A DNA stretch of 64,000 nucleotides from Candidatus Zhuqueibacterota bacterium (GTDB lineage: Bacteria > Zhuqueibacterota > Zhuqueibacteria > JANLFK01 > Oleimicrobiaceae): the NCBI GenBank assembly GCA_024655945.1, contig JANLFK010000007.1, forward strand, positions 133,123 through 197,122, written 5' to 3'. This document shows, one piece after another, positions 1,124 to 39,703 of this stretch. Numbering within the stretch: the stretch's first letter is position 1; each line of letters opens with the position of its first letter. The notes under the pieces are model-generated. The model was not told where the DNA came from, made no database searches, and saw only the letters and a list, made by a program, of their open reading frames with translations. Position numbers and translations under genes: made by a program.

Positions 1124-1292
1124 CCAAAGGGAAGCGAACGCGCCGGAAGCACCGGCGTAGCGCCCAGCTAACGTTAAGCAAAATCAAGTTGCTGAGAGGG
1201 GGCGTGACGCGCCGGAGCTGTCTTTGCAGTGAGATGGTGTCTTTGCGTGAAACACCCACGCTCGGGGTTGTGGAACTGTGGAGGGTACAAGG

Positions 1293-4200
1293 ATGATGCT
1301 CAAGACACATGTGGTGCGGTGGGGGATGGTAGCGGTCCTCTTGGCGGTGGTGGCCGGCTTTGGTGCGGCGCAGACCATGGTTGACAATTTCAACCGGACG
1401 CAGCTTGGGTCGAATTGGACCGCCGATCCGGTCTACCAGATTGTCAACAATGAGTTGGCCAATACCAGCACAGTCTATCAATGGCCCGGGTATCTGGCGG
1501 TGTTCAACGCCATGACCGGGCCCACCACGGTCTCTTTCAAGTGGGGCACTACTGCCGACACCATTGGTACGCGGGAGGGAGCCCTTGCGGTCATGCTGGA
1601 CGCCAACAGCGTGAATGCCAACGGGTACATGATCTGGCATCACAGCACCAACAAGAGGATTTACCTGTACACGATTGCCAATGGGGCCCCCGGGGTGAAA
1701 GTGGACGACAAGGCCCCCTATCTGCCTGCTCCCAAGGCCGGCCAGGTCATGAGGGTGGTGATCACCTCCGATGCCGCTGGCTATCGGTTCGACCTGTACA
1801 TCAACGACCAGCTTGACGGCACGCTCACTGACCCGTTGAAGCGTGCTGGCAGCCTCAATGGGTATGCGGGCGTCATACTGAAGGGTAACCTCAATAACAA
1901 CATCGACGATTTCACCGTGTCCAAGGCCGGCGGCGGTGCTGAGACGCGCGACGACTTTAACCGCGCCGACGGTCCCCCGGGCGCGAACTGGAGTGCCGAC
2001 CCCGTCTACCAGATTGCCAGCAACGAGCTGGCCAACACCAACACCAACTACGTGTGGGGCGACCTTGCTATCTTCACCGCGCATCCGGGGCCGAATATGG
2101 TGCAATACACCTGGGGCGTGGGCGCGAACGCAGCCGGCATTCGCGAAGGCGCCTTTGCGGTGATGCTGGATAACGATAACCCTGATTCGGCGAACGGCTA
2201 CATGGTGTGGCACGCGGGCACCCGCCTCTATCTCTGGACGATTGAAGGAGGTGTGCCCAAGACACCCATCGTGAACATTGCCGCGGCACTGGCAGCTCCC
2301 ACGGCGGGTCAGACCGTTAAGGTGCTGATCACCGAGAATGCCAACGGCTACCATTTTGACTACTACGTGGACGACCAGTTCGACGGCCGTGTGTCTGATC
2401 CGTTGAAACGCGTGGGGAGCATCAACGGCTACGCGGGTGTCATGCTCAGAGGCGGAGTTGACCTCAACAACAACATCGACGACTTTGTTGCCGCCACCGT
2501 GGTGGACAACACGCCACCAGCAGCGGTGACCAATCTCGCGGTCAGCGCTACCACTGCCAGCTCTGTGACCCTGACCTGGACGGCCTCCGGCGATGACGGC
2601 ACGGTAGGCACGGCCGCCTCCTACGACCTGCGCAGGTCCACTTCGCCCATTACCGCCGCCAACTTTGACGCGGCCACCCCGGTCACCGGCCTGGGTACGC
2701 CTAAGGCCTCCGGCAGTGCGGAGACGTTCACCGTCACCGGTTTAAACTCGGCGACTACGTACTACTTTGCTCTTAAGGTGATCGACGATGCCGGCAACAA
2801 GAGCGACATCTCCAACGTGGTAACGGCCACCACGCAGAGCCCGGTGCGCTACGCCACCTACTGGGACACTTTCGAGCGCACGCAACTGGGTGACGATTGG
2901 GCGGCAGATCCGGAGTATGTGATTGAGAACGGGGAGCTGAAGAACAGCGTGACCACGGGCACCGCTGCCTGGGGCTATGCGGCGGTGTTCACAAAGTTCC
3001 CCAAGCCGCGTGCGGCGATGATCGTATGGAGCGAAACGGCGACCACTGCCGGTATTGGCCAGGGTGCCCTCTGTGCGATTATGGACCAGCCGAATCCCAA
3101 TGCCAATGGCTACATGATCTTCCACATTGACACCAGGCTCTTTCTCTACACGCTCAACGCGGGCAACCCCGGCGTGCAGGTGCAGTTGCTGACAAATGTG
3201 GCCACGCAACCGGCGGCAAGGGACACCTTCAAGGTGGTGTTCAGCACGGATGCCACCGGACACCACTTTGACGTCTACAAGAATAGCACCTTTGTGGGGC
3301 GCCTCAATGATGCTTCGCGCCTGATCAATCCGGCCACCTGGTATGTGGGTGCCTACCTCAAGGGCGGCGCCGGGTACGGCGGTGCCAACAACATCGAGGC
3401 CTTCGGTGTGGAATTGCAGGCCACCGAACCCACCAGGGTGGAGTACTGGTCGGGCGATGCGCAGACTGGGCGCATCGGCGAGGCTTTGCCGCAGCCCCTC
3501 AAGGTGCTCGTCACCGATGCCAACAACGTGCCGGTGCCGGGTGTGTACGTCGACTTTGCCGTCACCAGTGGGGTGGCAAGCTTGAGCACCGATATCACTT
3601 CCTTCGACGGCAACATCTGGCTAGAAGCGGAGAGCGGCATGGTGGAAACGCCCATGGTGCGCATCGCCGATGCAGACGCTGCGGGCAGCATGTGCGTGGG
3701 CGTGCCGACGCTCAACACTACCAATGACACGGGCAAGGTGGAGATTCACTTTTTCGTGCCGCAAACCGGCAACTACTACCTCTGGGTGCGCTACAAGGCC
3801 CCGGACAACCTGTCCAACTCCTTCTACGTGAAGAAGGACAAGGGGGCGTACGCCCTGGTGAACCTCACCGTGTCCACCACCTGGGCTTGGTCCAAGTACG
3901 CAACGGCGTTCAACTTTACCAAGGGTGGACACAGCATCACCCTGAAGAATGCCGAGGACGGGACGCTCATCGATAAAGTTCTCTTGACCACCTCGACGAC
4001 TTACACGCCCTCTGGTCAGGGGAGCTTGGCGACCACGTACTCAGACAAACTCACTGACGGCGACGGCCTGGCTTCGGCCATCTGCACGCTGGGGCTGCAG
4101 GTGGGCACGGTCACGGTGGAGGCGCGCGCCTACTATCGTGGGGACCAGCTCACAGGGAGCCCTGTAGTCTTTACCGAGTCGGCGGTAGGCGGCGAGGCGA

Positions 4201-7200
4201 GCCGCTTGGTGTATGTCTCAGGTGATAGCGTCTTCGGCCAGGCGGGGCAACGATTGCCGCAGCCGTTCGTGGTCAAGGTAACTGATGCCTTTGGCAACGG
4301 CGTGCCGAACGTCGCGGTCACCTTCTCCATCCTGGAAGGCGGCGGTACGCTGTCGAACGCGCAGCCTGTAATGACTGACAACAGCGGCCAGGCATCCACC
4401 TACCTGACCTTGGGCTTTGGCTCCTACCTGCAGCGGGTGCAGGCCAGTGCGCCCGGACTGGAGGGGTCGCCCATCATCTTCCGCGCCTATGCCACGGGCC
4501 TGAACCTGGCAATGTCCAAGGTGAGTGGCGACGGACAGTCCGGAACGGTGGGCACCGTGTTACCCCAGCCCTTGGTGGTCAGGGTGGCGCACGTGACCTC
4601 AGGCGATCCGGTGGCAGGCTTCCCGGTGACCTTTGTAGTAACGGCAGGGGGCGGGGAGCTTGATGGGAGCGCGACCACGAAGGTGGTGACGACCAATGCG
4701 GAGGGCCGGGCCTCGGTGACATGGACGCTGGGTGATGCCGCCGGTACCAATACCTGCGAAGCCAGGGCTACCGGCGTGGGCGGTTCACCCTTGGTGTTCA
4801 CGGCGACTGGCCAGCCCGGCCCGCCGACCACATTCACCAAGATCTCGCCATTGGAGACAGTGAGCGGGCCGGTGGGCATGCCCCTGGATGAGCCTTTCCG
4901 CGTGCGCGTCACTGATGCCAAGGGGAATGGCATCCCTGGACACCAAGTCCGTTTTGTGCGCACCATGGGTAGCGGCACCATGGACGGCATGACCGAGCGC
5001 AATGTGGCCACCGACGCGCAAGGGTATGCCCAGGTGATCTACGTGATGGGCAGCGCCCTCGGCGAGACGAACCGCGTGGAGGCCTCCGCGCAATACCAGG
5101 GCGCGCACTTGGCGGGCTCGCCGGTGGTCTTTACCGCCATTAGCACCGAAGGGGTGGCGCATCAGCTGGCCAAGGTCTCTGGCGACGGCCAGAGCGGAAC
5201 AGTGGGCACGGTGCTACCTGCGCCGTTTGTGGTGCGGGTCACCGACATCCTGGGTAACCCGATCGCTAACCATCCGGTGCGCTTTGCGGTCATCGGCGGT
5301 GGCGGCAACATCGGTGGGCAGACCTCTGTGGAGGTGCCAACGAACGCCGAGGGGTTGGCGTCGGTCACGCTCACTCTTGGGCAGGTTGCAGGTCGCGAGG
5401 TGCACGTGGTAGAGGTGACCTCGCAGCGGAACCAGGTGCCCTTGCAGGGCTCGCCCAAGTACTTCAAGGCCTCGGCTACCCCAGGCACGCCCTCGCAGCT
5501 CGTCTACGTGTCTGGCAACTACCAGAGCGCTGCCGTGGGCACCACTTTGAACGACCCGCTGAAGGTGAAGGTGGCCGATGCCTACGGCAACGGCATCAGG
5601 GGACATCTGGTCACCTTTAAGGTCATCTCTGGAGGCGGCAGTTTTGCCGGCATTCCGGAGCAGAACGCGTACACGGACAGCTTCGGCGTCGCCATGGCGT
5701 TCTTGACCCTGGGGACGCAGCCTGGGCAGAACAACAACGTGGTCGAAGTGTCGGCCAAGCAGAGTGGCGTCCACCTGGACGGCTCGCCGTTCACCTTCTA
5801 CGCGACTGCCTCTCCGGGCATTGCCGCTGCGCTGCAGTACGTGTCCGGGCGCAACCAGTCGGCCGAGGTAGGCACCGTACTCCCGCAGCCGCTGGTGGTG
5901 AAGGTCGTGGACAGCTTCGGCAACGCAGTGGTCGGGCACAATGTCACCTTCTCGGTGATCGAGGGTGGGGGTACTCTTGCGGGACAGACGCAGAGGAACG
6001 TGCTCACGCTCTCCGATGGCACGGCACGGGTGGTCTACACCTTAGGCACGGTCGCCGGGACGCTGAACAATCTGGTGCGCGCCAGCGTGCCAGGGCTATC
6101 CGGCTCGCCGGTCGATTTCTACGCCACTGCGCTCCCGGGCCCGCCCGCGGCGCTGATGGAGGTTTCCGGAAACGGGCAGACCGGCGCGGTAGGTACGCCG
6201 TTGCCGCAGCCGTTCAAGACAAAGGTTGTAGACAACTATCAGAACCCGATCAACGGTCACATCGTCACCTTCAGGGTGTTGAGCGGTGGTGGGAACCTGG
6301 CCGGGGCCAGTCGTCGCGATGTGTTCACCGACACGCAGGGCATCGCGCAAGTGACGCTGACGTTGGGCGCCACCCCAGGGGTGAACAACAACGTGGTCGA
6401 GGCGACCAGTGTTGCTCGCGACAGCACGCCTCTGCCTGGCTCGGGCGTCCGCTTCATCGCCTCGGCCACGGTGGGAGCGCCCAATAAGCTGGTGATAGTC
6501 AGTGGCAACAACCAGGAAGGCATCGTGGGCAACCCGCTGCCGCAGATGCTCACCGTCAAGGCAACCGACTCGCAGAACAACCCCATCGTCGGCCACTCGG
6601 TGACGTTCAGGGTGATGGCCGGCGGCGGCACGTTGGACGGCCCCACGGACACGTTGCGGGTGGTACAGACCGACGTCGAGGGCAAGGCGGCAGTGTTCCT
6701 CATCCTGGGCCCGGTTGCCGGGCAGAACAACAACGTCGTGCATGCCATCGCCACCTACGGCGGCAGCCAGTTGTCTGGTTCGCCGGCGGTCTTTGTCGCC
6801 TCGGCGCGAAGCAGCAACGCCACTGCCATCGAGAAGGTCTCGGGCGATGGCCAGTCAGCGGCTGCGGGCTCGACCCTGGCGCAGCCCATCCGCGTGCGGG
6901 CCCGCGACAGGAACCAAAACCCGGTTGCAGGCCACCCAGTGACCTTCAGGGTGGTGACAGGCGGCGGTGTGTTGAACGAGGTGGGCAACATCGTGGTGGT
7001 CAATACAGGCAGCGACGGTATTGCCGAGGTCACCTGGAAGTTGGGCACGGTGGCGGGCACGAATAACAACACGCTTGAAGCGACGGCAACAGATGGCGTG
7101 AACCCGCTGGCCGGCTCCCCGTTGCTGTTCACCGCATCGGCTTTTGCCGGCCCGCCCAGCGCCCAGGCCTCCACCATCACGGCCACTTCTCCCATTCCCG

Positions 7201-9806
7201 CGGATGGTGTGAGCAAGTCGCCCATCACCGTCAGGTTGCGCGACCAGTACAACAACCCGGTGCCTAACGCAGCCGTGATCATCAACGCCACGGGAACCAA
7301 CAATATCATCACGCAGCCGATGAGCCTCACCGACCCCAATGGCGAGACCCAGGGCTATCTTGCTTCGACGAAGGCGGAGGTGAAGGTAGTGAGCGCCCGC
7401 GCCGTGACCCATGGCGTTGACCTGCTGGCTACCGCCCAGGTGCGCTTCACGGCGCTGGCCGCCGCGCGCATCGCCGAGTTCGGTGGCAATGGCCAGATCG
7501 GCAACATCGGCACCGTGCTTGCCAATCCGCTGCAGGTGCGAGTGACTGACCGCAATGATAACGGCATCGTTGGCTATGCGGTGCAGTTTGCGGTGACCGC
7601 CGGCGGTGGCAGCATTGTCGAGCCGCAGCCGGTATATACCGACAGTAACGGTGTGGCACAGGCCCATTGGATCTTGGGGCGGACCGCCGGCTACAACCGC
7701 GTCGAGGCACGCGCCCCAGGTCTTAGCGGCTCGCCAGTGAGCTTTACTGCCTTCGGCCTGGAGCCGACGCCAGCGGCGATTGCCATCCACTCCGGCAATG
7801 AGCAGACCGGCATAGCCGGGCGGCTGTTGCCGCAACCGCTGGTGGTAAAGGTGACCGATGCCGCGGGCGTGGGGGTCTTTGGTCGCGCCGTGAGGTTTGA
7901 TGTCATCCTGGGCGACGGGGCCCTGGTCACCCCTGCAGTGGACACCACCGATGCCTATGGCTTGGCGGAGACCTATCTGACCCTCTCGCGAAGCTCCGGA
8001 TTGAACCTGGTGCGCGCGACTTGTCAGGGTCTGACCGCCACGGTCACCTTCACGGCCTACGCCGGGTCGGACGTAGCTACTAAATTGGAAATCTACTCTG
8101 GTGACAAGCAGGAGTACGTGGTGGGTCGGACGTTGCCGCTGCCGCTGGTGGCAAGGGCGTTGGACAAGAACAACAATCCCGTCTCCGGGGTGCCCGTCAC
8201 CTTTACGGGAATTCAGGGCAATGGCACCCTGCCCAGCGACAACACGCGGCTGACCGACAACGAGGGAAAGGCCAGCATCCCGTTCACTCTGGGCACCGCC
8301 GCGGGTACCTACCTGGTTCGCGCAGCGGCTCTGGGCTTGACCCCCGTCGTCTTCACGGAGACCGGCTTGCCGGATGTGCCCGCGAATCTGATCTACGTCA
8401 GTGGCAACGGCCAGACCGGTAGCGTCGGGCGGGAGACGGTCTTCCCGTTGCAAGTGCGTGTGACCGACCAGTACGGGAACCCCGTGCCCAACTCCTCGGT
8501 CACCTACGTGGTAATCCAGGGTGGCGGCAGCATTGTCGAGCCGCAGCCGGTCTACACCAATGGCAGTGGCATTGCTTCGGCGCGCTGGCGGCTCGGCCCG
8601 ACGGTGGGTGAGAATAAGTGCCTGGCCTACAAGCAGGGCTGCCTCGGCTCGCCCATTGAGTTCACTGCCGTGGCAGTGGAGAATGCCTTCCCGCAGCTCG
8701 TGTTGCCGTCGGGCATCACGGTGCAGGAGACGCAGCGGGTGCGCTTCACGGTGGTAGCGACCGACGCCGACGGCGACCCCCTCACCTATCACGCGCGCAA
8801 GCTGCCCGCAGGCGCCACCTTCGACTCCTTGGGCACGCGGGTGTTCGACTGGACGCCCAACTATGCGCAGGCTGGGGTCTACTACCCGGTCTTCATCGCG
8901 CGCGACAACAAGGGCGGCATCGGCATCGACTCGGTGCGTATCGAGGTGCTAAACTTTAACCGTCCGCCGCACATCGTCGGCTACTCGCCGGTGTTCGACC
9001 AGATCACCATCGTGCAGCCGGATTCGGTCACCTTTGTGGTGGAGGCGGCTGACTTGGACGGCGACTCGCTGCGGTACGAATGGACCGTGGCCGGCATCAT
9101 CACTTCCACCGCGAGCACCTTCGTGCTCAGGTCGACGCTGTTCTCCATCGGCAACTATGACGTCAAGGTGAAGGTGAGCGATGGGTATGACACCATCGAG
9201 CGGACGTGGCACGTGCGCATCACCTCGACGGCCGTGGAGCTGGAGAGCTTTGCGGCGCGGGCCGTTCCCTACGAAGGGGTGGTCATCGAGTGGAAGACCG
9301 GGTTCGAGGCAAACAACGTGGGCTTCCACATCCTGCGGAGCTGCGCGCGGCAGAGCGGCTATGTGCCCGTGAACAGCGAGCTCATCCTCAGCAGGGATGA
9401 CCGCACCTACACGTTCGTGGACAAGACCGCCAACGAGGGAGGCGCGTACTACTACAAGCTCGTCGATGTCGACCGGAATGGGACGCGTACGGAACATGGC
9501 CCGATTGCCGTGCTCGCACCGGTGCCGGCCAAGTATGCGTTGTCCCAGAACTACCCGAACCCGTTCAACCCGGTGACGACCATCCGCTACGAGCTGCCTG
9601 CCGCCGGCCGGGTGACCGTGAAGATCTACAACATCTACGGCCAGCTGGTGCGCACCCTGGTCGACGAGCAGGTGGCCGCAGGCTACCACACGCTGCTGTG
9701 GGATGGGCGCGACGAGGACGGCCAGGCGGTCTCCTCCGGGGTGTACTACTACCGCATGGTCTCTGGCACCTTCGTGGAGACCAGGAAGATGGCACTGCTG
9801 CGGTGA
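1293..9806 (+). CDS. giant (~2840 aa) secreted cell-surface adhesin with a T9SS C-terminal sorting domain
   Basis: Signal peptide MMLKTHVVRWGMVAVLLAVVAGFGAAQ. A GGAGGG SD sits 6 nt before the ATG at 1293 (the ORF track starts at GTG 1278). Three ~190-aa N-terminal repeats (F[ND]R..LG..W.ADP.Y.I.N.ELAN) lie at ~1380-1940, 1944-2500 and 2860-3420, with an FN3 domain (~2514-2840) between repeats 2 and 3. A beta-sandwich/CBM-like module follows (~3620-4010). About 15 Big-type Ig repeats (motif [VY]SG[DN].Q.G.VG..LPQP[LF].V.V.D..GNP) span ~3430-8680. Cadherin-like/He_PIG modules (~8690-9230) and a C-terminal NYPNPFNP...YYYR T9SS sorting domain complete the protein. No in-frame stops over 8.5 kb. 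Confidence 0.9.
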   Translation: MMLKTHVVRWGMVAVLLAVVAGFGAAQTMVDNFNRTQLGSNWTADPVYQIVNNELANTSTVYQWPGYLAVFNAMTGPTTVSFKWGTTADTIGTREGALAVMLDANSVNANGYMIWHHSTNKRIYLYTIANGAPGVKVDDKAPYLPAPKAGQVMRVVITSDAAGYRFDLYINDQLDGTLTDPLKRAGSLNGYAGVILKGNLNNNIDDFTVSKAGGGAETRDDFNRADGPPGANWSADPVYQIASNELANTNTNYVWGDLAIFTAHPGPNMVQYTWGVGANAAGIREGAFAVMLDNDNPDSANGYMVWHAGTRLYLWTIEGGVPKTPIVNIAAALAAPTAGQTVKVLITENANGYHFDYYVDDQFDGRVSDPLKRVGSINGYAGVMLRGGVDLNNNIDDFVAATVVDNTPPAAVTNLAVSATTASSVTLTWTASGDDGTVGTAASYDLRRSTSPITAANFDAATPVTGLGTPKASGSAETFTVTGLNSATTYYFALKVIDDAGNKSDISNVVTATTQSPVRYATYWDTFERTQLGDDWAADPEYVIENGELKNSVTTGTAAWGYAAVFTKFPKPRAAMIVWSETATTAGIGQGALCAIMDQPNPNANGYMIFHIDTRLFLYTLNAGNPGVQVQLLTNVATQPAARDTFKVVFSTDATGHHFDVYKNSTFVGRLNDASRLINPATWYVGAYLKGGAGYGGANNIEAFGVELQATEPTRVEYWSGDAQTGRIGEALPQPLKVLVTDANNVPVPGVYVDFAVTSGVASLSTDITSFDGNIWLEAESGMVETPMVRIADADAAGSMCVGVPTLNTTNDTGKVEIHFFVPQTGNYYLWVRYKAPDNLSNSFYVKKDKGAYALVNLTVSTTWAWSKYATAFNFTKGGHSITLKNAEDGTLIDKVLLTTSTTYTPSGQGSLATTYSDKLTDGDGLASAICTLGLQVGTVTVEARAYYRGDQLTGSPVVFTESAVGGEASRLVYVSGDSVFGQAGQRLPQPFVVKVTDAFGNGVPNVAVTFSILEGGGTLSNAQPVMTDNSGQASTYLTLGFGSYLQRVQASAPGLEGSPIIFRAYATGLNLAMSKVSGDGQSGTVGTVLPQPLVVRVAHVTSGDPVAGFPVTFVVTAGGGELDGSATTKVVTTNAEGRASVTWTLGDAAGTNTCEARATGVGGSPLVFTATGQPGPPTTFTKISPLETVSGPVGMPLDEPFRVRVTDAKGNGIPGHQVRFVRTMGSGTMDGMTERNVATDAQGYAQVIYVMGSALGETNRVEASAQYQGAHLAGSPVVFTAISTEGVAHQLAKVSGDGQSGTVGTVLPAPFVVRVTDILGNPIANHPVRFAVIGGGGNIGGQTSVEVPTNAEGLASVTLTLGQVAGREVHVVEVTSQRNQVPLQGSPKYFKASATPGTPSQLVYVSGNYQSAAVGTTLNDPLKVKVADAYGNGIRGHLVTFKVISGGGSFAGIPEQNAYTDSFGVAMAFLTLGTQPGQNNNVVEVSAKQSGVHLDGSPFTFYATASPGIAAALQYVSGRNQSAEVGTVLPQPLVVKVVDSFGNAVVGHNVTFSVIEGGGTLAGQTQRNVLTLSDGTARVVYTLGTVAGTLNNLVRASVPGLSGSPVDFYATALPGPPAALMEVSGNGQTGAVGTPLPQPFKTKVVDNYQNPINGHIVTFRVLSGGGNLAGASRRDVFTDTQGIAQVTLTLGATPGVNNNVVEATSVARDSTPLPGSGVRFIASATVGAPNKLVIVSGNNQEGIVGNPLPQMLTVKATDSQNNPIVGHSVTFRVMAGGGTLDGPTDTLRVVQTDVEGKAAVFLILGPVAGQNNNVVHAIATYGGSQLSGSPAVFVASARSSNATAIEKVSGDGQSAAAGSTLAQPIRVRARDRNQNPVAGHPVTFRVVTGGGVLNEVGNIVVVNTGSDGIAEVTWKLGTVAGTNNNTLEATATDGVNPLAGSPLLFTASAFAGPPSAQASTITATSPIPADGVSKSPITVRLRDQYNNPVPNAAVIINATGTNNIITQPMSLTDPNGETQGYLASTKAEVKVVSARAVTHGVDLLATAQVRFTALAAARIAEFGGNGQIGNIGTVLANPLQVRVTDRNDNGIVGYAVQFAVTAGGGSIVEPQPVYTDSNGVAQAHWILGRTAGYNRVEARAPGLSGSPVSFTAFGLEPTPAAIAIHSGNEQTGIAGRLLPQPLVVKVTDAAGVGVFGRAVRFDVILGDGALVTPAVDTTDAYGLAETYLTLSRSSGLNLVRATCQGLTATVTFTAYAGSDVATKLEIYSGDKQEYVVGRTLPLPLVARALDKNNNPVSGVPVTFTGIQGNGTLPSDNTRLTDNEGKASIPFTLGTAAGTYLVRAAALGLTPVVFTETGLPDVPANLIYVSGNGQTGSVGRETVFPLQVRVTDQYGNPVPNSSVTYVVIQGGGSIVEPQPVYTNGSGIASARWRLGPTVGENKCLAYKQGCLGSPIEFTAVAVENAFPQLVLPSGITVQETQRVRFTVVATDADGDPLTYHARKLPAGATFDSLGTRVFDWTPNYAQAGVYYPVFIARDNKGGIGIDSVRIEVLNFNRPPHIVGYSPVFDQITIVQPDSVTFVVEAADLDGDSLRYEWTVAGIITSTASTFVLRSTLFSIGNYDVKVKVSDGYDTIERTWHVRITSTAVELESFAARAVPYEGVVIEWKTGFEANNVGFHILRSCARQSGYVPVNSELILSRDDRTYTFVDKTANEGGAYYYKLVDVDRNGTRTEHGPIAVLAPVPAKYALSQNYPNPFNPVTTIRYELPAAGRVTVKIYNIYGQLVRTLVDEQVAAGYHTLLWDGRDEDGQAVSSGVYYYRMVSGTFVETRKMALLR

Positions 9807-11501: not shown

Positions 11502-13052
11502 ATGAGTAGGAAGGAAAAAGAGAATCTGGGGGAGCGCAAGGCGAAGAGCAACAAGCAGCCCGCAGGCTCTCAGGGCAGGCGAGTGTCGCTTGGGACCTGG
11601 AAGGTCGACAGCGAGGCGATCTTCGAGAGCATCTCTGACGGCGTTTTCACGGTGGATTTGCAATGGCGCATCACCTCCTTCAATCGGGCCGCGGAGCAGA
11701 TCACCGGGGTGCCGCAGAGCGAAGCGCTTGGCCGTCTATGCTGGGAGGTGTTCCGCGCCAGCCTCTGCGAATCCGACTGCGCCCTGCGCCGCACCTTGGC
11801 GAGTGGCCAGCCGGTGGTCGGCCAAACCGCTTACATCGTCACCGCCCGAGGCGAGAGAATTCCCATCAGCGTTTCCACGGCCGTCTTGCCCGATGCTCAG
11901 GGCAAGGTGATCGGTGGTGCGGAAACCTTTCGCGACTTGAGCGAAGTCCAGGCCCTGCGCGAAGAGCTGGAGGGACGGGCCCGCGTTGGTGAGCTCTTCA
12001 GCCAGAGCCCGGAGATGCAGAAGATTTTCGCTGTGCTCCCGGCTATTGCCGCAAGCCCCTGCACGGTTCTCATCACAGGCGAGAGCGGGACGGGGAAGGA
12101 GCAGTTGGCGCGTGCCATCCATGCCTTGAGCCCAAGAGCAAAGGGACCCTTTGTGGCGGTCAACTGTGGCGCTTTGCCGGAGACACTCTTAGAGTCGGAG
12201 CTGTTCGGCTACACAGCGGGCGCTTTCACAGGCGCCACCAAGGACAAACCCGGCCGTTTCGCCTTGGCAAAGGGCGGCACGCTCTTCTTGGACGAGATAG
12301 GCGACATGACGCCTGCCCTTCAGGTGCGGCTTCTGCGGGTGCTGCAGGAGCGAACCTACGAACCGCTGGGCGCCGTGCGAAGCGAACAGGCCGATGTGCG
12401 TATCATCGCGGCCAGCAACAAGGATCTGGCGGCGCTGGTGAAAGTGGGGAGCTTCCGCGAGGACCTGTATTATCGCATCAACGTCGTGCGGCTGGACCTG
12501 CCGCCTCTGCGCAGGCGCAGGCAGGACATACCGCTGCTCATTGAGCAGATGATCGAGCGGTTCAACCGCTTGCACCACAAGTCGATCCGTGGAGTGAGCA
12601 GCGATGCGCTCTCCCTGCTCATGGCCTACGACTGGCCTGGGAATATCCGCGAGCTGGAAAATGCCATTGAGCACGCCTTCATTCTCTCTCAGGGGGAGCT
12701 GATAGAAATGGTGCACTTGCCTCCGGAGCTTACCGGTGCCTCGCACCCCTTCCGGCCGCAGGGCGAGGGTCGTCGCCCCGTCAGCGACGCGCAAAGAGCC
12801 AAGGCCCTCGTGGAGGCGCAAGCAATCCAACGTGCGCTGGAGCGCCACGGTTATAATCGCGTGGCTGCCGCTCGCGAGCTGGGGATGCACAAGAGCACCC
12901 TTTTCCGCAAGATCAAACGCCTGGGTCTGGTGTTGCCGGAAAAAGGCGGGCGCTCGCGCCGCTCAGTGGCAGTCGTGCGCCTCTGTTTGCTCGGGAGAGT
13001 CGCACCGGTGCGCCTCGTTTGGCTGCCTGGAGATGTCTCATGTCTCATCTAA
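11502..13052 (+). CDS. sigma-54-dependent Fis-family transcriptional activator with N-terminal PAS domain
   Basis: PAS region FESISDGVFTVDLQWRITSFNRAAEQITG. AAA+ sigma-54 interaction domain: Walker A GESGTGKE, GAFTGA loop, FLDEIGDM Walker B, ESELFG, R-finger. C-terminal Fis-type HTH. Confidence 0.9.
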   Translation: MSRKEKENLGERKAKSNKQPAGSQGRRVSLGTWKVDSEAIFESISDGVFTVDLQWRITSFNRAAEQITGVPQSEALGRLCWEVFRASLCESDCALRRTLASGQPVVGQTAYIVTARGERIPISVSTAVLPDAQGKVIGGAETFRDLSEVQALREELEGRARVGELFSQSPEMQKIFAVLPAIAASPCTVLITGESGTGKEQLARAIHALSPRAKGPFVAVNCGALPETLLESELFGYTAGAFTGATKDKPGRFALAKGGTLFLDEIGDMTPALQVRLLRVLQERTYEPLGAVRSEQADVRIIAASNKDLAALVKVGSFREDLYYRINVVRLDLPPLRRRRQDIPLLIEQMIERFNRLHHKSIRGVSSDALSLLMAYDWPGNIRELENAIEHAFILSQGELIEMVHLPPELTGASHPFRPQGEGRRPVSDAQRAKALVEAQAIQRALERHGYNRVAAARELGMHKSTLFRKIKRLGLVLPEKGGRSRRSVAVVRLCLLGRVAPVRLVWLPGDVSCLI

Positions 13053-13101
13053 CTGCTTGTCATGTGGGGGGTTGGAATGCTGCACCTCGTGGGATCGCAC
13101 A

Positions 13102-13117
13102 TGGCACGCCTGTTGCA
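13102..13117 (+). promoter_or_regulatory. sigma-54 -24/-12 promoter (TGGCAC-N5-TTGCA)
   Basis: TGGCACgcctgTTGCA is a near-perfect consensus. It lies 50 nt after the EBP gene stop and ~43 nt upstream of the GTG start at 13160, which has a GAGGGAG SD. Confidence 0.6.
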
Positions 13118-13159
13118 AAAGCAACGGACGGCGGTAACGGTCTAACGTGAGGGAGTCGC

Positions 13160-13627
13160 GTGCGGGTGGCCTTTTCGGTGTGGGGAGAGTACATCTCTCC
13201 GGTGTTCGATGTCGCGCGCGAGCGGCGTGTCCAGGTGCTGGTTTGTGGAGCCATCTCGCGATGGCTTCATGCAGCCTTGCGCAGCAGTGGCGTTCGCGTT
13301 ATCCCGTTCGTCGCTGGCAAGGTGGCCGATGTTGAAGCGGCTTTCCTCACGGGCGCACTTGGCCGGCCAGAATTTGTCATGCCAGGGTGCTGTCACCGCC
13401 ATGGGAGCTTTTCTTTCGGCCGAAAGGAGCGTGCCATGCGTGCAAGACAAGGAAGAGGTGGAGGTCAAGGCAGGGGGCAAGGCCCGGGACCATGCGGCGG
13501 CTTTGGCGGGCCAGGCGGCTTCAGCATCTGCCCGCAATGTGGTCACCGCGAGCCCCACGAACGGGGCGTCCCTTGTCAACAGAGGGTCTGCCCCCAGTGC
13601 GGAACTCCCCTCGTGCGAGAACAGTAG
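13160..13627 (+). CDS. NifX/NifB-like (dinitrogenase FeMo-cofactor-binding family) domain protein with G-rich linker and C-terminal CPxCG...CPxCG zinc ribbon
   Basis: The N-terminal ~90 aa match PF02579-type proteins (VWGEYISPVFD...VLVCGAISR...VIPFVAG). The tail GRGGGQGRGQGPGPCGG...CPQCGHREPHERGVPCQQRVCPQCGTPL is a zinc ribbon. An internal ATG at 13433, preceded by AAAGGAG, could alternatively start a separate 64-aa Zn-ribbon protein in the same frame. Confidence 0.55.
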   Translation: MRVAFSVWGEYISPVFDVARERRVQVLVCGAISRWLHAALRSSGVRVIPFVAGKVADVEAAFLTGALGRPEFVMPGCCHRHGSFSFGRKERAMRARQGRGGGQGRGQGPGPCGGFGGPGGFSICPQCGHREPHERGVPCQQRVCPQCGTPLVREQ

Positions 13628-13643
13628 CAAGACGGAGGACGTT

Positions 13644-13979
13644 ATGCCACGAGGTGATCGGACAGGTCGCATGGGCATGGGGCCCATGACCGGACGAGCG
13701 GCCGGTTACTGTGCTGGATTCCCCACGCCTGGGTATGCGAACCCCTTGGGACGGTGGGCATGGTGGGGAGGTGGCCGCGGCTGGCGGCACTGTTTCTACG
13801 CCACCGGTCTCCCTGGGTGGCTCCGCTTCGGGCGATGGTTCTGGGGCATGCCGGTATCCGCCCCGGAACCGGAAGTGGAGAAACAGGCGTTGAAAGCCCA
13901 GGCGGACTGGCTGGAAAAGGAGCTGCAGGCTATAATAAAGAGACTCGAGGAGTTGGAGGCCTCCGGCGAACAGCAGTAA
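13644..13979 (+). CDS. DUF5320-like small protein (G/P/M-rich N-terminus, coiled-coil C-terminus)
   Basis: MPRGDRTGRMGMGPMTGRAAGYCAGFPTPGYANP...EKQALKAQADWLEKELQAIIKRLEELEA. A GGAGGA SD sits 5 nt upstream. The track's longer ORF from 13209 is a spurious upstream extension. Confidence 0.55.
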   Translation: MPRGDRTGRMGMGPMTGRAAGYCAGFPTPGYANPLGRWAWWGGGRGWRHCFYATGLPGWLRFGRWFWGMPVSAPEPEVEKQALKAQADWLEKELQAIIKRLEELEASGEQQ

Positions 13980-14139
13980 CTTGGCTGCAAGAGGCGACAC
14001 CCCGTCCCGCGCCGAGGGGCGGAAGTAATCCTGTCGCAAGGCAGTCACTCACCACCTCCCCAAAATGGCAACTGGCGAGGGGGGACTCGTGCCGTCTGCC
14101 TGCGTGGCCCTATTGATGTGGAAAGGAGCACCGAAGAGC

Positions 14140-15126
14140 GTGCCGAACGATTCCACAAGTACAGAGCCGAGGACCGTGTCCATACAGGTCGAGGACTTAC
14201 GCAAGGCCTTCGGCGAGGTGCGCGCATTGGACGGGGTGTCCTTCACCGTCTATCAGGGCGAGCTGTTCGGCTACCAGAGCCCCAACGGAGCGGGCAAGAC
14301 GACGACCATCAACCTGCTCACGGGTCTGGCCAGGCCGGACAGCGGTTCCATCCGCATCGCCGGCATCGACTGTGCCGCTGACCCCAAGGCTGCCCAGCAC
14401 TTGATCGGCGTGGTTCCGGACGAGAGCAATCTCTACCCGGAGCTCACGGGCTTTGAGAACCTTTGTTTCTGCGCGGCGCTTTAGGGCGTGAGGAAGGCGG
14501 AGTGCGAGGCGCGAGCAGAGGCGCTGTTGGACAGCTTTGGCCTTGCAGAGGCAGCGCACCGTCGGTTCGCCGGCTACTCCAAGGGCATGAAGCGCAAGCT
14601 GACCATTGCCGCTGCCCTCATTCACCGGCTCCCTCTGCTTTTCCTCGACGAGCCGACCACCGGCATCGACGTGGCCAGCGCCAGGCACATCCGGCAACTG
14701 ATTGCCAAACTGCACGAGGAAGGCACGACCGTCTTCCTGACCACCCACTACATCGAAGAGGCGGAGCGGCTCTGCCAACGCATAGCGCTCATTGTCGCCG
14801 GCCGCATCGTGCGTATCGACACCGTGGAGGCTTTGCGGCAGGACTCCCAGCAGCCGTACGTGGTGCACCTGGTTCTTGGCAACGCGGTGCCGGGCCTGCT
14901 GGAAAAGCTCGCCGCCGCCTTCCCGAACTTGGTCTTCTATGACCGGCAGCCGGACGTGATCCGGGTCGAGTCGCCGCTGCCGGTGCGCTGTCTGGAAGAG
15001 ACTGGAGCCGAGGTCAGAGAGGCAAAAATGGTGGTCCCTTCACTGGAAGAGGCGCTTGTGCGCATCACCGGCATCGAAGCGGAGGCCATGCGCCGCGATG
15101 CCGAGAAGAAAGGGGGCGAAGGATGA
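14140..15126 (+). pseudogene. ABC transporter ATP-binding protein interrupted by an in-frame TAG at 14482-14484, with an atypical Walker A
   Basis: Two same-frame ORFs (14065-14484 and 14488-15126) together encode a complete ABC ATPase (Q-loop, signature YSKGMKRKL, Walker B LLFLDEPTTGID, H-loop). The stop replaces a position normally occupied by Tyr (LENLCFCAAL*GVRKAE versus the usual ...Y.. pattern). Walker A reads YQSPNGAGKT rather than G..GPNGAGKT. Confidence 0.7.
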
Positions 15127-15860
15127 GCCACTGGATAGCCTTCTGGAACATCCTGCGCAAGGACATGCGCACCTACTACCTCAAGCCTCCGAACATAAGC
15201 TGGGGGCTGATCTTCCCCCTGGCGTGGGCGGCGATGTTTTTCATCAAATCGGGGAGGGGAATGCAGGATGTGTTGTCGGTGCTCCCCGGTGTGGTGGCCG
15301 TTTCGATCCTCTTTGGGACCACCTCCATGCTGGCCGTTACCGTCACCTTCGAGAAGAGGAATCGTTCCTTTGAGCGCCTCCTCCTCGCGCCTATCCCTTT
15401 GGAGTTGCTCATGTTGGCCAAGACCAGCGGCACCATTATCTTCGGGGTCCTCAACGCGTTCGTGCCGGTTGCTATGGCGGCATTCGTTGCCGATGTGGCA
15501 AACATCGCCTGGGAGATGTTTGTCCCTGCCGTGCTCTTGATCGCCGTGGTCTCTACGCTGTTTGGGCTGTTCATCCCGGTGAGCGTGAGCGAGGTGTTCG
15601 AGGCTCAGACCTTTTCCAACTTTTTCCGCTTTCCGATGATTTTCCTCTGCGGGCTGTTTTTCCCCGTGGCGAAGCTTCCGATTGTGCTGCGGCCCGTTGC
15701 CTACCTCCTGCCGCTCACCTATGGGGCCGATATCCTGCACGGGGCAATTGGAGGTGCGAACGCTTATCCGGTGTTGTTCGACTTTGCGCTGCTCATGGGC
15801 TTCTGTGCAGGGCTGTTCGCCCTCACGCTGGCGAATGTCCGACGGCGATGGATTGCTTGA
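15123..15860 (+). CDS. ABC-2 family transporter permease
   Basis: 245 aa with six predicted TM helices and ABC-2 type motifs. ATGA overlap with the upstream ABC ATPase. Confidence 0.8.
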   Translation: MSHWIAFWNILRKDMRTYYLKPPNISWGLIFPLAWAAMFFIKSGRGMQDVLSVLPGVVAVSILFGTTSMLAVTVTFEKRNRSFERLLLAPIPLELLMLAKTSGTIIFGVLNAFVPVAMAAFVADVANIAWEMFVPAVLLIAVVSTLFGLFIPVSVSEVFEAQTFSNFFRFPMIFLCGLFFPVAKLPIVLRPVAYLLPLTYGADILHGAIGGANAYPVLFDFALLMGFCAGLFALTLANVRRRWIA

Positions 15861-15872
15861 GCGCTTGACCCT

Positions 15873-16769
15873 GTGGCTTCGCGGCAAAAGTGCCCGAAGA
15901 GGTGTTTGGAGATGGAGCAGAACGAACGGGTGTTGGCTTATCAGCGGAACGAGCTCACCGAGCATGAGGTTTACAAGCGCTTAGCGCGAGGGGCCTCTCC
16001 GGAGAATCGGGATGTGCTCGCCTCCATCGCCGCAGATGAGCTCCGCCACTACCGGGAGTGGCGAAAGCTCAGCGGCCAGGACGTCAAGCCGCGCTGGCTG
16101 CAGGTGGCCCTGTTCGTGCTCATCGGCCGCCTGCTCGGTCTGACCTTTGCCCTGAAGTTGATGGAGAAAGGGGAGCGACTGGCGCAGGTTGAATATGGCA
16201 AGACCTCGCAGGAGCTGAGCGCAGCGGAGGCCCTTGGCCGCGAGGAAGAGGCACATGAGGCCACATTGCTGGCACTTCTCAACGAGAAGCACCTCCACTA
16301 CGTGGGAGCTATTGTCCTCGGTTTGAACGACGCGCTGGTAGAACTGACCGGCGGCCTTGCGGGTCTGACGCTGGCTTTGCAGCGCACGCGACTGGTGGCG
16401 CTCTCCGGCACTGTGGTGGGTCTGGCGGCGGCCATGTCCATGGCGGCGTCGGTCTATCTTTCCGCCAAGGCAGAAGCGGGTGACAAGGAGCCGGCGCACT
16501 CTGCGGCCTACACCGGCATCGCCTACGTGATGACTGTTGCCGTGCTCGTCATGCCCTTTTTCTTGCTGGAGAAGGCTCTTGTGGCCCTTGGTCTGGCCTT
16601 GGCAGCGTCCATCCTCATCGTGGCGAGCTTCACCTTCTACACCGCGGTGGCGCTGGACAGGCCCTTTGGCCGGCAGTTTGTGGAAATGGCCGCCATCAGC
16701 TTGGGCGTTGCTGCGGCCAGCTTTGCCGTGGGCTATGTTGCCCGTGCCCTGCTCGGCGTGGAGGTGTGA
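15873..16769 (+). CDS. VIT-family protein: ferritin/rubrerythrin-like N-domain fused to a VIT1/CCC1 Fe/Mn transporter domain
   Basis: N-terminal ER motif region EHEVYKRLA...ADELRHYREW...EEEAHEA, then five TM helices typical of PF01988. Start may be GTG 15873 or ATG 15912. Confidence 0.7.
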   Translation: MASRQKCPKRCLEMEQNERVLAYQRNELTEHEVYKRLARGASPENRDVLASIAADELRHYREWRKLSGQDVKPRWLQVALFVLIGRLLGLTFALKLMEKGERLAQVEYGKTSQELSAAEALGREEEAHEATLLALLNEKHLHYVGAIVLGLNDALVELTGGLAGLTLALQRTRLVALSGTVVGLAAAMSMAASVYLSAKAEAGDKEPAHSAAYTGIAYVMTVAVLVMPFFLLEKALVALGLALAASILIVASFTFYTAVALDRPFGRQFVEMAAISLGVAAASFAVGYVARALLGVEV

Positions 16770-16846
16770 ACCGGAAAGCAGCGTTGCCGGCCCCGGGTTC
16801 GAAGAGTCGCCAGCTGTGCGACAAGAAGAGGAGCGAAGGAAACAAG

Positions 16847-17752
16847 ATGACTGGATCGCAAGAGGATGCACACGATCTCTCCGCCCAAGAGGCGATGGAA
16901 AGCTTGGAACTGGCCAAGCGCCTGGCGCAGATCGGCTACAAGATTCTGGTGCTCTCCGGAAAGGGAGGCGTAGGGAAAAGCACGGTCGCTGCTAACCTGG
17001 CCGTGGCTCTGGCAGCCATGGGCAGGCGCGTGGGCCTCCTGGACGTCGACTTTCACGGCCCCAGCATCCCCAAGCTGATGGGCTTGGCGCAGCGCAGCGT
17101 GGCCATCGAGCAGGGGTCGATATTGCCGGTGGACTGCGGCCCCCACCTCAAGGTGATGTCCTTGGGCCTGCTGCTGCACAGCGAAGAGGATGCCGTCATC
17201 TGGCGGGGCCCCTTGAAAATGGGGGTGATCAAGCAACTGCTCAAGGACGTGCAATGGGGCCGCCTGGACTACCTGATCGCGGACAGCCCTCCTGGTACAG
17301 GCGATGAGCCGCTTTCGGTGGCGCAGCTCCTTACGCCGCCGGCAAGCGCCATCGTGGTGACCCAGCCTCAGCAGCTTTCCACTGCAGACGTGCGGCGCTC
17401 CATCCGTTTCTGCCAGCGGGTGGGTCTCCCTGTTTTGGGCGTGATTGAGAACATGAGCGGTTTTGCCTGCCCGCACTGCGGCACCCGAGTGGAGGTGTTC
17501 GGCAGCGGTGGGGGCGAACAACTGGCGCTGCAGGTGGACGTGCCGTTCCTCGGTCGCATTCCGCTGGACCCAAAGGTGGCGGAGTCTGGCGACCAAGGGA
17601 AGCCCTTTGTCGCCTACCTGCAGCAGTCGCCGATCGCGCAGGAGTTCCAGGCCATCGTGGAAAAGGTCCTCGCCGCCACCGAGAAAGAGGCAAGAGCCGA
17701 AGAGCCGGAAACCGACCCCGCCCAGACACCAGAGGCCCCTTCGAGCATCTGA
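16847..17752 (+). CDS. apbC: Mrp/NBP35 (ApbC) family Fe-S cluster carrier ATPase
   Basis: ILVLSGKGGVGKSTVAANLA deviant Walker A, DxDxHGPSIP, CPHCG C-terminal motif. A GAAGGA SD sits 7 nt before the ATG at 16847 (the track alternative GTG 16766 overlaps the upstream stop). Confidence 0.85.
   Translation: MTGSQEDAHDLSAQEAMESLELAKRLAQIGYKILVLSGKGGVGKSTVAANLAVALAAMGRRVGLLDVDFHGPSIPKLMGLAQRSVAIEQGSILPVDCGPHLKVMSLGLLLHSEEDAVIWRGPLKMGVIKQLLKDVQWGRLDYLIADSPPGTGDEPLSVAQLLTPPASAIVVTQPQQLSTADVRRSIRFCQRVGLPVLGVIENMSGFACPHCGTRVEVFGSGGGEQLALQVDVPFLGRIPLDPKVAESGDQGKPFVAYLQQSPIAQEFQAIVEKVLAATEKEARAEEPETDPAQTPEAPSSI

Positions 17753-26520: not shown

Positions 26521-26524
<4 letters not shown>
26129..26524 (-). 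CDS. YgjP-like (DUF45/M48-family) zinc metallopeptidase-like protein accessory to the type I R-M system
   Basis: HELVHLKVPNHGRLF carries an HExxH motif. ATGA overlap with the hsdR stop. DUF45 genes commonly accompany hsdR. Confidence 0.65.
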
Positions 26525-29499
<2,975 letters not shown>

Positions 29500-38625: not shown

Positions 38626-39703
38626 GGAAGGGCTGTGCGGGCACCGTGCGAGTTGCCAGGGGCAGGCTGCGCGCAAGCGGGTTGATGGTCTCCGCGGGTC
38701 GATCGCCCAGGCGCCGCCCGTCTTCCTTGCCGTGCATAGCCTTTCCGCGAACTATCCGCGGGGGCTTGCCTACTTTCCTGGGGCGACGTTGCTGCTTGTG
38801 GGACTACTCGCCGCGCGGCCTGCACTGTACCGTGTACCCAATGACCCGCGGCTCTGCTTCCCCGGCTCCCCATCGCCCTGGAGGCCCTCAAGGGGCTTAG
38901 CTGTGGGAGGCAAGGGCCTCATGGCTATCCTGCCCAGCAATCGATGGTGAAGACAACCTGTCCCGCACCAGGCCGAAGGAGCAGAGTGCCTGCCTCTTCT
39001 GTGCCTTGAGTGGCCAACGGGCGCTGCGCTGGAAGACCGACGAGTCCCTGTACGTGGCCGGGAACATGGCTTTGAGGCCGGACGAAAGCATCCGTGCGGT
39101 CGGGAAGGGCAATCTCCTCCTGTGCTTTGATCGCCAGGGTCAACTCAAGTGGGGGTAGCTTTGGTTGCCGGACTGAGCTGGGCAGCAGGGGGCTGCTGCT
39201 GGACTCTGAGGGTGCGGCGTACCTGCTTACCGTTGTCGCTTGGCACCGGCCTTGGACAAGTTCGGGCGGCAGGCATTCGCGTGTGAGTTGCCTCAGCGCG
39301 ACGGGTCTGGCGAGCGGAGCGATTTCTGCAGACGGGCGGCTCGACCCTCTTGGTGAGTGGGGACTCTTCAGCATCCAGTAGGAGGGGAATGGCGCTGCGT
39401 AGTCGCCAAAGCCCAGGTGCGGAGCCTTGTTGCCGCCGACAGGGCAGTGAGCGCGCTCGGGCGCGGGCTTCCTCGGAGCTAACCGGTTCACAGGTTCCCG
39501 TGGCTGAGGAACGGGAAGGCGAAGCGGCATGGCAGAAGTTGCGGGGCAGAGTTCTTGCCCAGGCTCCAGGTGCGTACTCCTCGAGTTTTGCCTTCTTGCT
39601 CTGCCCGAAAAAGACCTTGCTTCTTTGCCTTCCCGGTTGTATATTTTTAGCGCCAGCTGAAAACCCCGACGCGGCCCGTTTTCTCTCGCTACTGGCTAAC
39701 TAT

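Follow-up and report, generated by a model that had tools for sequence, protein, structure and literature searches.

The redox-responsive activator OrpR (DVU2106) of Desulfovibrio vulgaris carries a [4Fe-4S]2+ cluster in its PAS domain, which is converted to [3Fe-4S]1+ by mild oxidation (PMC8359166). The residues involved are C52, E/D54, C61 and C65, and the three cysteines are required for redox sensing (PMC8359166). The orp operons are expressed anaerobically and are off once the redox potential rises. OrpR without its PAS domain gives constitutive expression, and oxidised forms of OrpR still bind DNA (PMC8359166). OrpR works with sigma-54 and integration host factor (IHF) on promoters next to the orpR gene (PMC3897727). 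The families of the Desulfovibrio orp cluster include the Orp3/4 ATPases, Orp8 (the orange protein, ORP) and Orp9 (MrpORP), the last of which uses its P-loop and CXXC features to bind a bridging [4Fe-4S] cluster and passes the cluster to target proteins (PMC6345978). A locus related to this system is described here from a 64-kb stretch of a Candidatus Zhuqueibacterota genome, referred to as the window. All positions are window coordinates, and the main region (11502 to 17752) lies on the plus strand.

The region is probably an OrpR-type redox switch driving a sigma-54 operon in which the ORP core has been replaced by ABC-2 and VIT1 exporters. Judged from sequence comparison, it shares its regulator, its type of promoter and its set of associated genes with the published orp/OrpR system, and the window holds a rare variant without the ORP core and with transporters. 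An initial annotation, made from the letters of the window alone, had read the region as a sensor-controlled sigma-54 operon of anaerobes for metal or Fe-S handling. It was largely right, and this core reading was strengthened by the comparative data. The statement that the components have no assigned function is wrong for the module as a whole given the published orp/OrpR system, but is fair for the NifX-ribbon and DUF5320 proteins. What the initial annotation missed was the absence of the ORP core genes from this locus and the apparently disabling lesions in two of the seven genes.

The NifX-ribbon protein (XZ) encoded by the first gene of the operon was used as the probe. Relatives were present in 426 genomes of a scan with one genome per species, and for the NifX-ribbon comparisons 80 loci spread over many phyla were retrieved. 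Downstream genes were counted in the 54 loci with at least 5 kb of downstream sequence. The closest relative of the window is locus L001 from GCA_014359355.1, a Calditrichaeota metagenome-assembled genome (MAG), which has ~86% nucleotide identity to the window and shares its gene order. A second relative, L131, is a short fragment with 70% identity that shares part of the variant gene order of the window.

Activator, promoter and predicted binding sites

The regulatory part of the region was assigned the following features.

11502 to 13052, plus strand: OrpR-type sigma-54 enhancer-binding protein of 516 residues with PAS domain, AAA+ domain with GAFTGA, and Fis-type helix-turn-helix (HTH)
11739 to 11780, plus strand: codons of the PAS cysteine triad, C80-W-E82-VFRASL-C89-ESD-C93, corresponding to the OrpR [4Fe-4S] ligand signature C-x-E-x6-C-x3-C
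12965 to 12982, no strand assigned: predicted upstream activator site 1, AGTGGCAGTCGTGCGCCT; its centre is 128 nt 5' of the T of TGGCAC
12998 to 13015, no strand assigned: predicted upstream activator site 2, AGTCGCACCGGTGCGCCT; its centre is 95 nt 5' of the T of TGGCAC
13102 to 13117, plus strand: sigma-54 -24/-12 promoter TGGCAC-gcctg-TTGCA, TGGCACGCCTGTTGCA, an exact match

The PAS-domain sigma-54 activator of the initial annotation was upheld by Pfam (PAS_4 2e-13; Sigma54_activat, PF00158, 6e-69; AAA_lid_14 1e-27; HTH_8 1e-11), and a canonical GAFTGA loop was read in the translation. By the spacing of its triad, in which C80/E82/C89/C93 equals C52/E-D54/C61/C65 of OrpR, the activator is assigned to the OrpR type. 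The signature C-x-[ED]-x6-C-x3-C was found in 58 of the 67 activators adjoining NifX-ribbon genes, and most of the other nine are shortened open reading frames. A sigma-54 activator lies directly 5' of the NifX-ribbon gene and on the same strand at 66 of the 75 loci with enough upstream sequence. Over its full length the window activator has 61-69% identity to 57 activators in this position.

The ancestral stop of the activator gene, TGA in L001, reads TCA at 12963-12965 in the window. Loss of this stop adds 29 codons, which run across both predicted binding sites until a TAA (12963-13052). The 50-nt gap between activator and promoter that had been reported is therefore present, but only because the ancestral stop was lost.

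The promoter had also been predicted correctly and TGGCACGCCTGTTGCA is the sole exact match to TGGCAC-N5-TTGCA in the 64 kb. About two one-mismatch matches are expected by chance per 64 kb. As a lone match is expected by chance, the reality of the promoter rests on its conservation. In 68 of 82 related loci a match of at least 13/15 was present 10-81 nt upstream of the NifX-ribbon start, compared to 1.2% of random windows of equal size in the same loci. The window promoter equals that of L001 except for one spacer base. A GAGGGAG ribosome-binding site is present, and the GTG start at 13160 lies 42 nt 3' of the promoter. Elsewhere in the window TGGCAC-N5-TTGGA at 39241-39256 is without the -12 GC dinucleotide and was dismissed as most likely a chance match.

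The two predicted activator sites form a direct repeat with a spacing of 33 nt. Site 2, which reads AGTCGCATAGGTGCGTCT in L001, is contained within a near-perfect 20-bp palindrome at 12997-13016. The palindrome consensus for the family is AGTAGC-N6-GCTACT (18 bp), and its half-site AGTAGC was found in 52 of 70 upstream regions compared to 3% of background regions. Dual sites with up to three mismatches were present at 49 of the 70 loci, nearly all centred near -128 and -95; in background sequence the density of such sites is 0.09 per 260 nt. The window sites are exactly at -128 and -95. Three-mismatch sites number 28 in the 64 kb, and from this count the chance of both expected positions being occupied is estimated at ~1e-6. 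L001 has conserved the ribosome-binding site, the promoter and, of the two palindromes, the proximal one (-95); its distal site is more diverged, and the intervening sequence has diverged. A half-site TGCGCC resembles the published OrpR half-site. IHF-like sites occur in 22 of 70 spacers compared to 4.6% of background, clustered ~35-45 nt upstream of the promoter. The sigma-54/activator reading of the predicted elements is strongly supported by this conservation.

In a minority of loci (L009, L014, L025, L043, L067, L078, the window and L001) both halves of the palindrome are altered symmetrically, from AGTAGC...GCTACT to AGTCGC...GCGACT. The HTH recognition helix HKSTLFRKI is unchanged in loci with the symmetrically altered palindrome.

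Domain content, the cysteine signature, the conserved promoter and sites, the gene order of the loci and the lesions are observed directly. Redox sensing and DNA binding by the activator, a need for sigma-54 in living cells and the physiology of the cargo genes are inferred, and would fit together as follows. The activator would sense redox potential through a [4Fe-4S] cluster on the PAS cysteine triad, and an oligomer of it would bind the two 18-bp palindromes at -128 and -95. Under reducing (anoxic) conditions ATP hydrolysis would open the sigma-54 closed complex at TGGCAC-N5-TTGCA, and at rising potential the PAS domain would turn activation off. In most anaerobes the switch would drive the NifX-ribbon protein, the DUF5320 protein, an ORP-like NifX protein and two MinD/ferredoxin ATPases, with Mrp in some. 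In the Calditrichota-related lineage the ORP/ATPase core would have been swapped for an ABC-2 exporter plus a VIT1 iron exporter of MbfA-like type. What the operon would probably provide is the handling of iron and iron-sulfur under reducing conditions, comprising export of surplus Fe2+, Fe-S binding or storage, and Fe-S delivery by Mrp.

Operon content in the window and across loci

The genes 3' of the promoter are listed below, with the ratio of nonsynonymous to synonymous substitution rates (dN/dS) for two of them.

13160 to 13627, plus strand: NifX-ribbon protein of 155 residues with a NifX-like domain, a Gly/Arg-rich linker and a Cys-rich ribbon; weak half-match to PF02579; CxxC...CxxC
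13644 to 13979, plus strand: DUF5320 protein (PF17253) with a cationic Gly/Trp/Arg-rich N-terminal part and an acidic C-terminal part, which the initial annotation took for a coiled coil
14140 to 15126, plus strand: ABC ATPase, disrupted, in two pieces split by an in-frame TAG
15123 to 15860, plus strand: ABC-2 type permease, intact; Pfam 2e-24; dN/dS versus L001 0.11
15912 to 16769, plus strand: VIT1-family iron transporter, N-terminal region ferritin/rubrerythrin-like; architecture like that of MbfA; dN/dS 0.11
16847 to 17752, plus strand: Mrp/NBP35 Fe-S carrier ATPase; PF10609 1e-98; alternative GTG start at 16766

Seven co-directional reading frames follow the promoter on the plus strand when the two pieces of the ABC ATPase are counted separately. 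Co-direction had been recognised from the start. The tight spacing claimed with it does not hold throughout, as a non-conserved spacer of 160 nt separates the DUF5320 and ABC ATPase genes.

The canonical gene order is activator, NifX-ribbon, DUF5320, single-domain ORP-like NifX, two MinD-like/ferredoxin ATPases (Orp3/4-like), often Mrp and sometimes a further NifX. It was found across many phyla (e.g., L084, L002, L035). DUF5320, usually the next gene after NifX-ribbon, was downstream at 47 of 54 loci, the ORP-like NifX at 41/54 and the ATPase pair at 38/54. Mrp was downstream at 18 of 54 loci. An ABC-2 permease or VIT1 gene was downstream at none of the 54. The window and L001 have kept NifX-ribbon, DUF5320 and Mrp, and the position of the ORP/ATPase core is held by the ABC ATPase, the ABC-2 permease and VIT1. 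A metagenome scan with the VIT1 protein gave 51 homologous loci. Only L131 had the ABC-permease-VIT1 arrangement and in the others the gene stands alone. It follows that the uptake of these transporters into the OrpR operon is particular to this lineage.

A general linkage of VIT1 to OrpR was rejected because ~50 metagenomic VIT1 loci stand alone. The single case in which an activator neighbours a VIT1 gene is L122; it is an unrelated activator without the OrpR PAS/cysteine-triad N-terminus, and there is no sigma-54 promoter.

Two further observations concern the loci of other genomes. A gene with a TrmO_N domain is contained within the canonical operon at 14 of 54 loci (L002, L004, L014, L017, L020, L021 and others), located either past the ATPases or between them and the ORP-like gene. 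L024, from a Spirochaetota MAG, has a second, divergent orp-like cluster at 2770-8176 with many short activator, NifX, ATPase and Mrp fragments. This cluster is either a degraded duplicate or the result of assembly frameshift errors.

The NifX family membership proposed for the first gene was checked against the PF02579 profile. It stands for the intact relative P0001 (35.8 bits, full coverage) but the window copy scores 17.2 bits against a cut-off of 26.3. Homologues are ~165-290 residues in length, most of them 190-210, compared to 155 in the window. An AlphaFold model of this intact relative (mean predicted local distance difference test score 82.7) has a disordered linker and a confidently modelled ribbon. 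The model matches PH0822 (target-normalised TM-score 0.82), TM1816, MJ0327, NifX, NafY, MTH1175 and the D. gigas orange protein (2wfb). The linker is 33% Gly with an isoelectric point (pI) of 11.6. Besides the NifX fold, the protein has an invariant Cys in LVCGAIS and a motif MPGC(C). Its Cys-rich module, C-x-C-x2-C-x5-H-x5-C-x4-C-x2-C, is invariant in 52 NifX-ribbon sequences and has six Cys and one His. The CxxC...CxxC ribbon of the initial annotation is present, but the label of zinc ribbon is probably too narrow because this Cys6-His module has more ligands than a simple zinc ribbon needs.

The same module is also fused to DUF134 (PF02001) in P0219 and P0220, and P0219 adds a sigma-70 region-4 domain (PF08281). 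These DUF134 fusions suggest that the ribbon is a mobile module.

The DUF5320 assignment was confirmed by its profile (1.9e-28; 100 bits, cut-off 27; all 99 profile positions covered). The N-terminal two-thirds of the protein has 23% Gly, 19% aromatic residues and 12% Arg+Lys, with a pI of 11.2.

The pairing of an ABC ATPase with an ABC-2 permease holds for the intact permease, but the ATPase is disrupted. The rubrerythrin-VIT1 assignment was likewise right in one half. The VIT1 domain scores 46.6-49.4 bits against a cut-off of 28.1, but the rubrerythrin score of the N-terminus (16.9-19.2 bits) is below its threshold of 22.8. The only PDB sequence match of the protein was the VIT1 structure 6iu3 (E=0.42). 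Mrp was correctly identified as an Fe-S carrier, and its translation has a deviant P-loop GKGGVGKS and a CPHC motif. Its best NCBIfam match is NF041136 MrpORP, with 389 bits against a cut-off of 450, over profile positions 2-260 of 365. As the match ends at position 260, this Mrp appears to be without the C-terminal NifX-like (Di-Nase) domain.

The 160-nt spacer between the DUF5320 and ABC ATPase genes (13980-14139) has no alignable counterpart in L001, where the spacer is 204 nt long, and promoter- and terminator-like sites were not found in it. It may be an insertion junction of the transporter genes. At E up to 1, Rfam gave no match to a riboswitch or other known RNA between 11000 and 18200, spacer included. 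Promoter-like sites were likewise missing from a simple sigma-70 and terminator scan, in which nothing after Mrp looked convincingly like a terminator.

The region is flanked on its 3' side by ffh, rpsP, rimM, trmD and rplS and on its 5' side by an IF-2B-family gene and the gene for a 2842-residue secreted repeat protein. The latter (1278-9806) has Big_1, invasin and fn3-type repeats and a C-terminal FlgD_ig/Por_Secre_tail signal (type IX secretion). A type I restriction enzyme R subunit (HSDR_N, ResIII/SWI2_SNF2, T1R domain 3) is encoded on the minus strand at 26521-29478.

Lesions in the window copy and rival explanations

The NifX-ribbon gene has a 99-nt in-frame deletion with its junction near 13217-13227, by which 33 residues present in all compared homologues are lost. 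L001 retains these 99 nt between the imperfect direct repeats CGAGAGCTGCGCATC and CGCGAGCTGGGCGTC. In the AlphaFold model of the intact relative the deleted stretch (equivalent residues 24-56) makes up the second and third strands and the first helix of the NifX fold. In addition residue 122 (13523-13525) is Ser, compared to Cys in 52/52 homologues. The reading frame of the ABC ATPase is broken at 14482-14484 by an in-frame TAG, where L001 has a conserved Tyr (ALYGV to AL*GV). Its Walker A reads SPNGAGKT, with Gly changed to Ser at 14278-14280, where L001 has GPNGAGKT. Near its C-terminus six residues that are kept in L001 and L131 are deleted. A functional ABC-2 exporter is expected to have an intact Walker A (GxxGxGK[ST]) and an uninterrupted frame, and the window ATPase has a substituted Walker A and an interrupted frame. 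Recoding of TAG was rejected, since the adjacent NifX-ribbon gene itself ends in TAG and this codon is therefore a true stop in the organism. With lesions in both the NifX-ribbon and ABC ATPase genes the operon in this genome is probably only partly functional.

All six downstream genes have a dN/dS of 0.10-0.20 between the window and L001. A relative-rate test gave no clear excess of amino-acid change on the window branch. The low dN/dS together with the absence of acceleration implies that the lesions are recent or are artefacts.

A decaying remnant would explain the damage if the operon left after loss of the ORP core were pseudogenising and had no present function. There are six window-specific lesions in three adjacent genes (the 99-nt deletion, the Cys loss, the TAG, the Walker A Ser, the 6-residue deletion and the loss of the activator stop), and public annotations give no product, or fragments only, for the NifX-ribbon and ABC ATPase genes. 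This explanation is considered unlikely. No damage is seen in the promoter, the two activator sites or the ribosome-binding site, and all are conserved with L001, with the reservation already made for the distal site. The activator triad and GAFTGA, the N-terminal DUF5320 signature and the Mrp P-loop and CXXC are also intact, and the permease and VIT1 genes showed no lesion. Given the substitution rates above, any decay would be recent and confined to two cargo genes.

The lesions could alternatively be assembly or consensus artefacts of a MAG, with the operon intact in the living organism. This is judged unlikely. Uninterrupted frames of 2842, 1130, 1028 and 985 residues elsewhere in the window argue against a generally error-prone assembly. 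The lesions also differ in kind, being substitutions and two in-frame deletions, and imperfect direct repeats border the larger deletion, as real slippage would leave them. TAG as the genuine stop of the neighbouring gene speaks in the same direction, recoding being unlikely. The artefact explanation draws on the identity of the window with a single assembly (GCA_029907585.1, contig JARYLN010000004.1, recorded also as a contig of JGI metagenome 3300038743), which gives no independent confirmation, and on the exact 155-residue NifX-ribbon product being on record nowhere else.

Several points weigh against an OrpR-type switch with exchanged cargo. A phmmer search of the whole 64 kb with an ORP-like query gave no ORP-like NifX gene. 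Orp3/4-like ATPases were not found either; for these the window gave only weak P-loop/ferredoxin cross-matches to Mrp and to a DUF362 protein, so the defining orp core is missing. The likeness to D. vulgaris OrpR was judged from published residue spacing. Each window site is three mismatches from the family consensus, and the palindrome has 18 bp and not 17 as published for OrpR. The published OrpR site GGGCGYRTTTTGCGCCC was not found at up to three mismatches in seven related loci (five of them Desulfovibrionales), a search that did not include the window. The best IHF-like site in the window spacer has two mismatches. The substrates of ABC-2 and VIT1 are taken from family names alone, and with two genes damaged the operon may no longer work as a unit. 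With these points included, the OrpR-type switch driving a sigma-54 operon with transporters in place of the ORP core is still regarded as the probable reading.

The DUF362 protein mentioned above (40145-41233) has a 4Fe-4S dicluster insert. It was the only weak Orp3/4 cross-match other than Mrp and is not an Orp3/4 homologue.

Comparison with described systems

The predicted redox switch of activator, dual sites and promoter has its positions conserved almost base-for-base across many phyla. It is nearly always followed first by the NifX-ribbon and DUF5320 genes, which nominates these two small proteins for biochemistry. In one lineage the switch would drive iron-export genes instead of the ORP core. 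These three findings are handles on the role of the ORP system and point to iron and iron-sulfur homeostasis under reducing conditions. The cross-phyla regulatory architecture and the NifX-ribbon/DUF5320 pair may be of wider use than this locus.

The VIT1 protein resembles MbfA of alpha-proteobacteria in having a C-terminal VIT1 membrane domain and N-terminal ferritin/rubrerythrin-like motifs of the E...ExxH type (PMC7762939). MbfA-type membrane-bound ferritins export iron (PMC7762939). MbfA is reported to be under Irr, whereas the window gene is located 3' of an OrpR/sigma-54 promoter and its N-terminal match is sub-threshold.

IssA of Pyrococcus furiosus is a thioferrate iron-sulfur storage protein of the PF02579 family, and its disordered tail is proposed to wrap anionic thioferrate (PMC5524996). 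The likeness of IssA and the 'IssX' clade to the NifX-ribbon protein lies in a PF02579/IPR003731 globular domain followed by a disordered Gly-rich cationic region (PMC5524996). The IssA tail has 15/70 Gly, 14/70 aromatic and 7/70 cationic residues with a pI of 10.7, and resembles the NifX-ribbon linker and the DUF5320 N-terminus (PMC5524996). The likeness is in composition and architecture alone, and IssA is without the invariant Cys6-His module. It is a tentative suggestion, and a somewhat doubtful one, that the NifX-ribbon and DUF5320 proteins are a bacterial split counterpart of the IssA thioferrate store, and that in the Calditrichota lineage the switch was rewired to iron efflux (VIT1, ABC-2) and Fe-S delivery (Mrp). 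In such a split store the NifX-like domain and Cys6-His module would nucleate anionic iron-sulfur species, and the Gly/Trp/Arg-rich cationic linker and DUF5320 regions would wrap them. OrpR would then be a master switch of the iron-sulfur economy under reducing conditions and not a cell-division regulator.

Compared with the canonical clusters of anaerobes, the variant locus has the same activator, promoter position, dual sites near -128 and -95, first two genes and Mrp at the end. It differs in that the middle of the operon is replaced, which was seen in the window, L001 and the fragment L131 only.

The closest described system is the orp/OrpR system of D. vulgaris Hildenborough. Both have a single-component PAS, AAA+ and HTH activator with the cysteine triad, encoded next to its target sigma-54 promoter (PMC8359166, PMC3897727). 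Both also have palindromic upstream sites and NifX-family and Mrp/NBP35 targets specific to anaerobes (PMC8359166, PMC3897727, PMC6345978). The window has one co-directional operon where D. vulgaris has two divergent ones. The window site is 18 bp, AGT(A/C)GC-N6-GC(T/G)NCT, compared to the 17-bp GGGCGYRTTTTGCGCCC of D. vulgaris OrpR, and the activator loop is GAFTGA compared to GAFTDA in DVU2106. The window is without ORP (Orp8) and the Orp3 and Orp4 ATPases and, unlike in D. vulgaris, its Mrp is without a fused NifX-like domain. The ABC-2 exporter and the VIT1 exporter are the extra cargo of the window relative to the D. vulgaris orp system.

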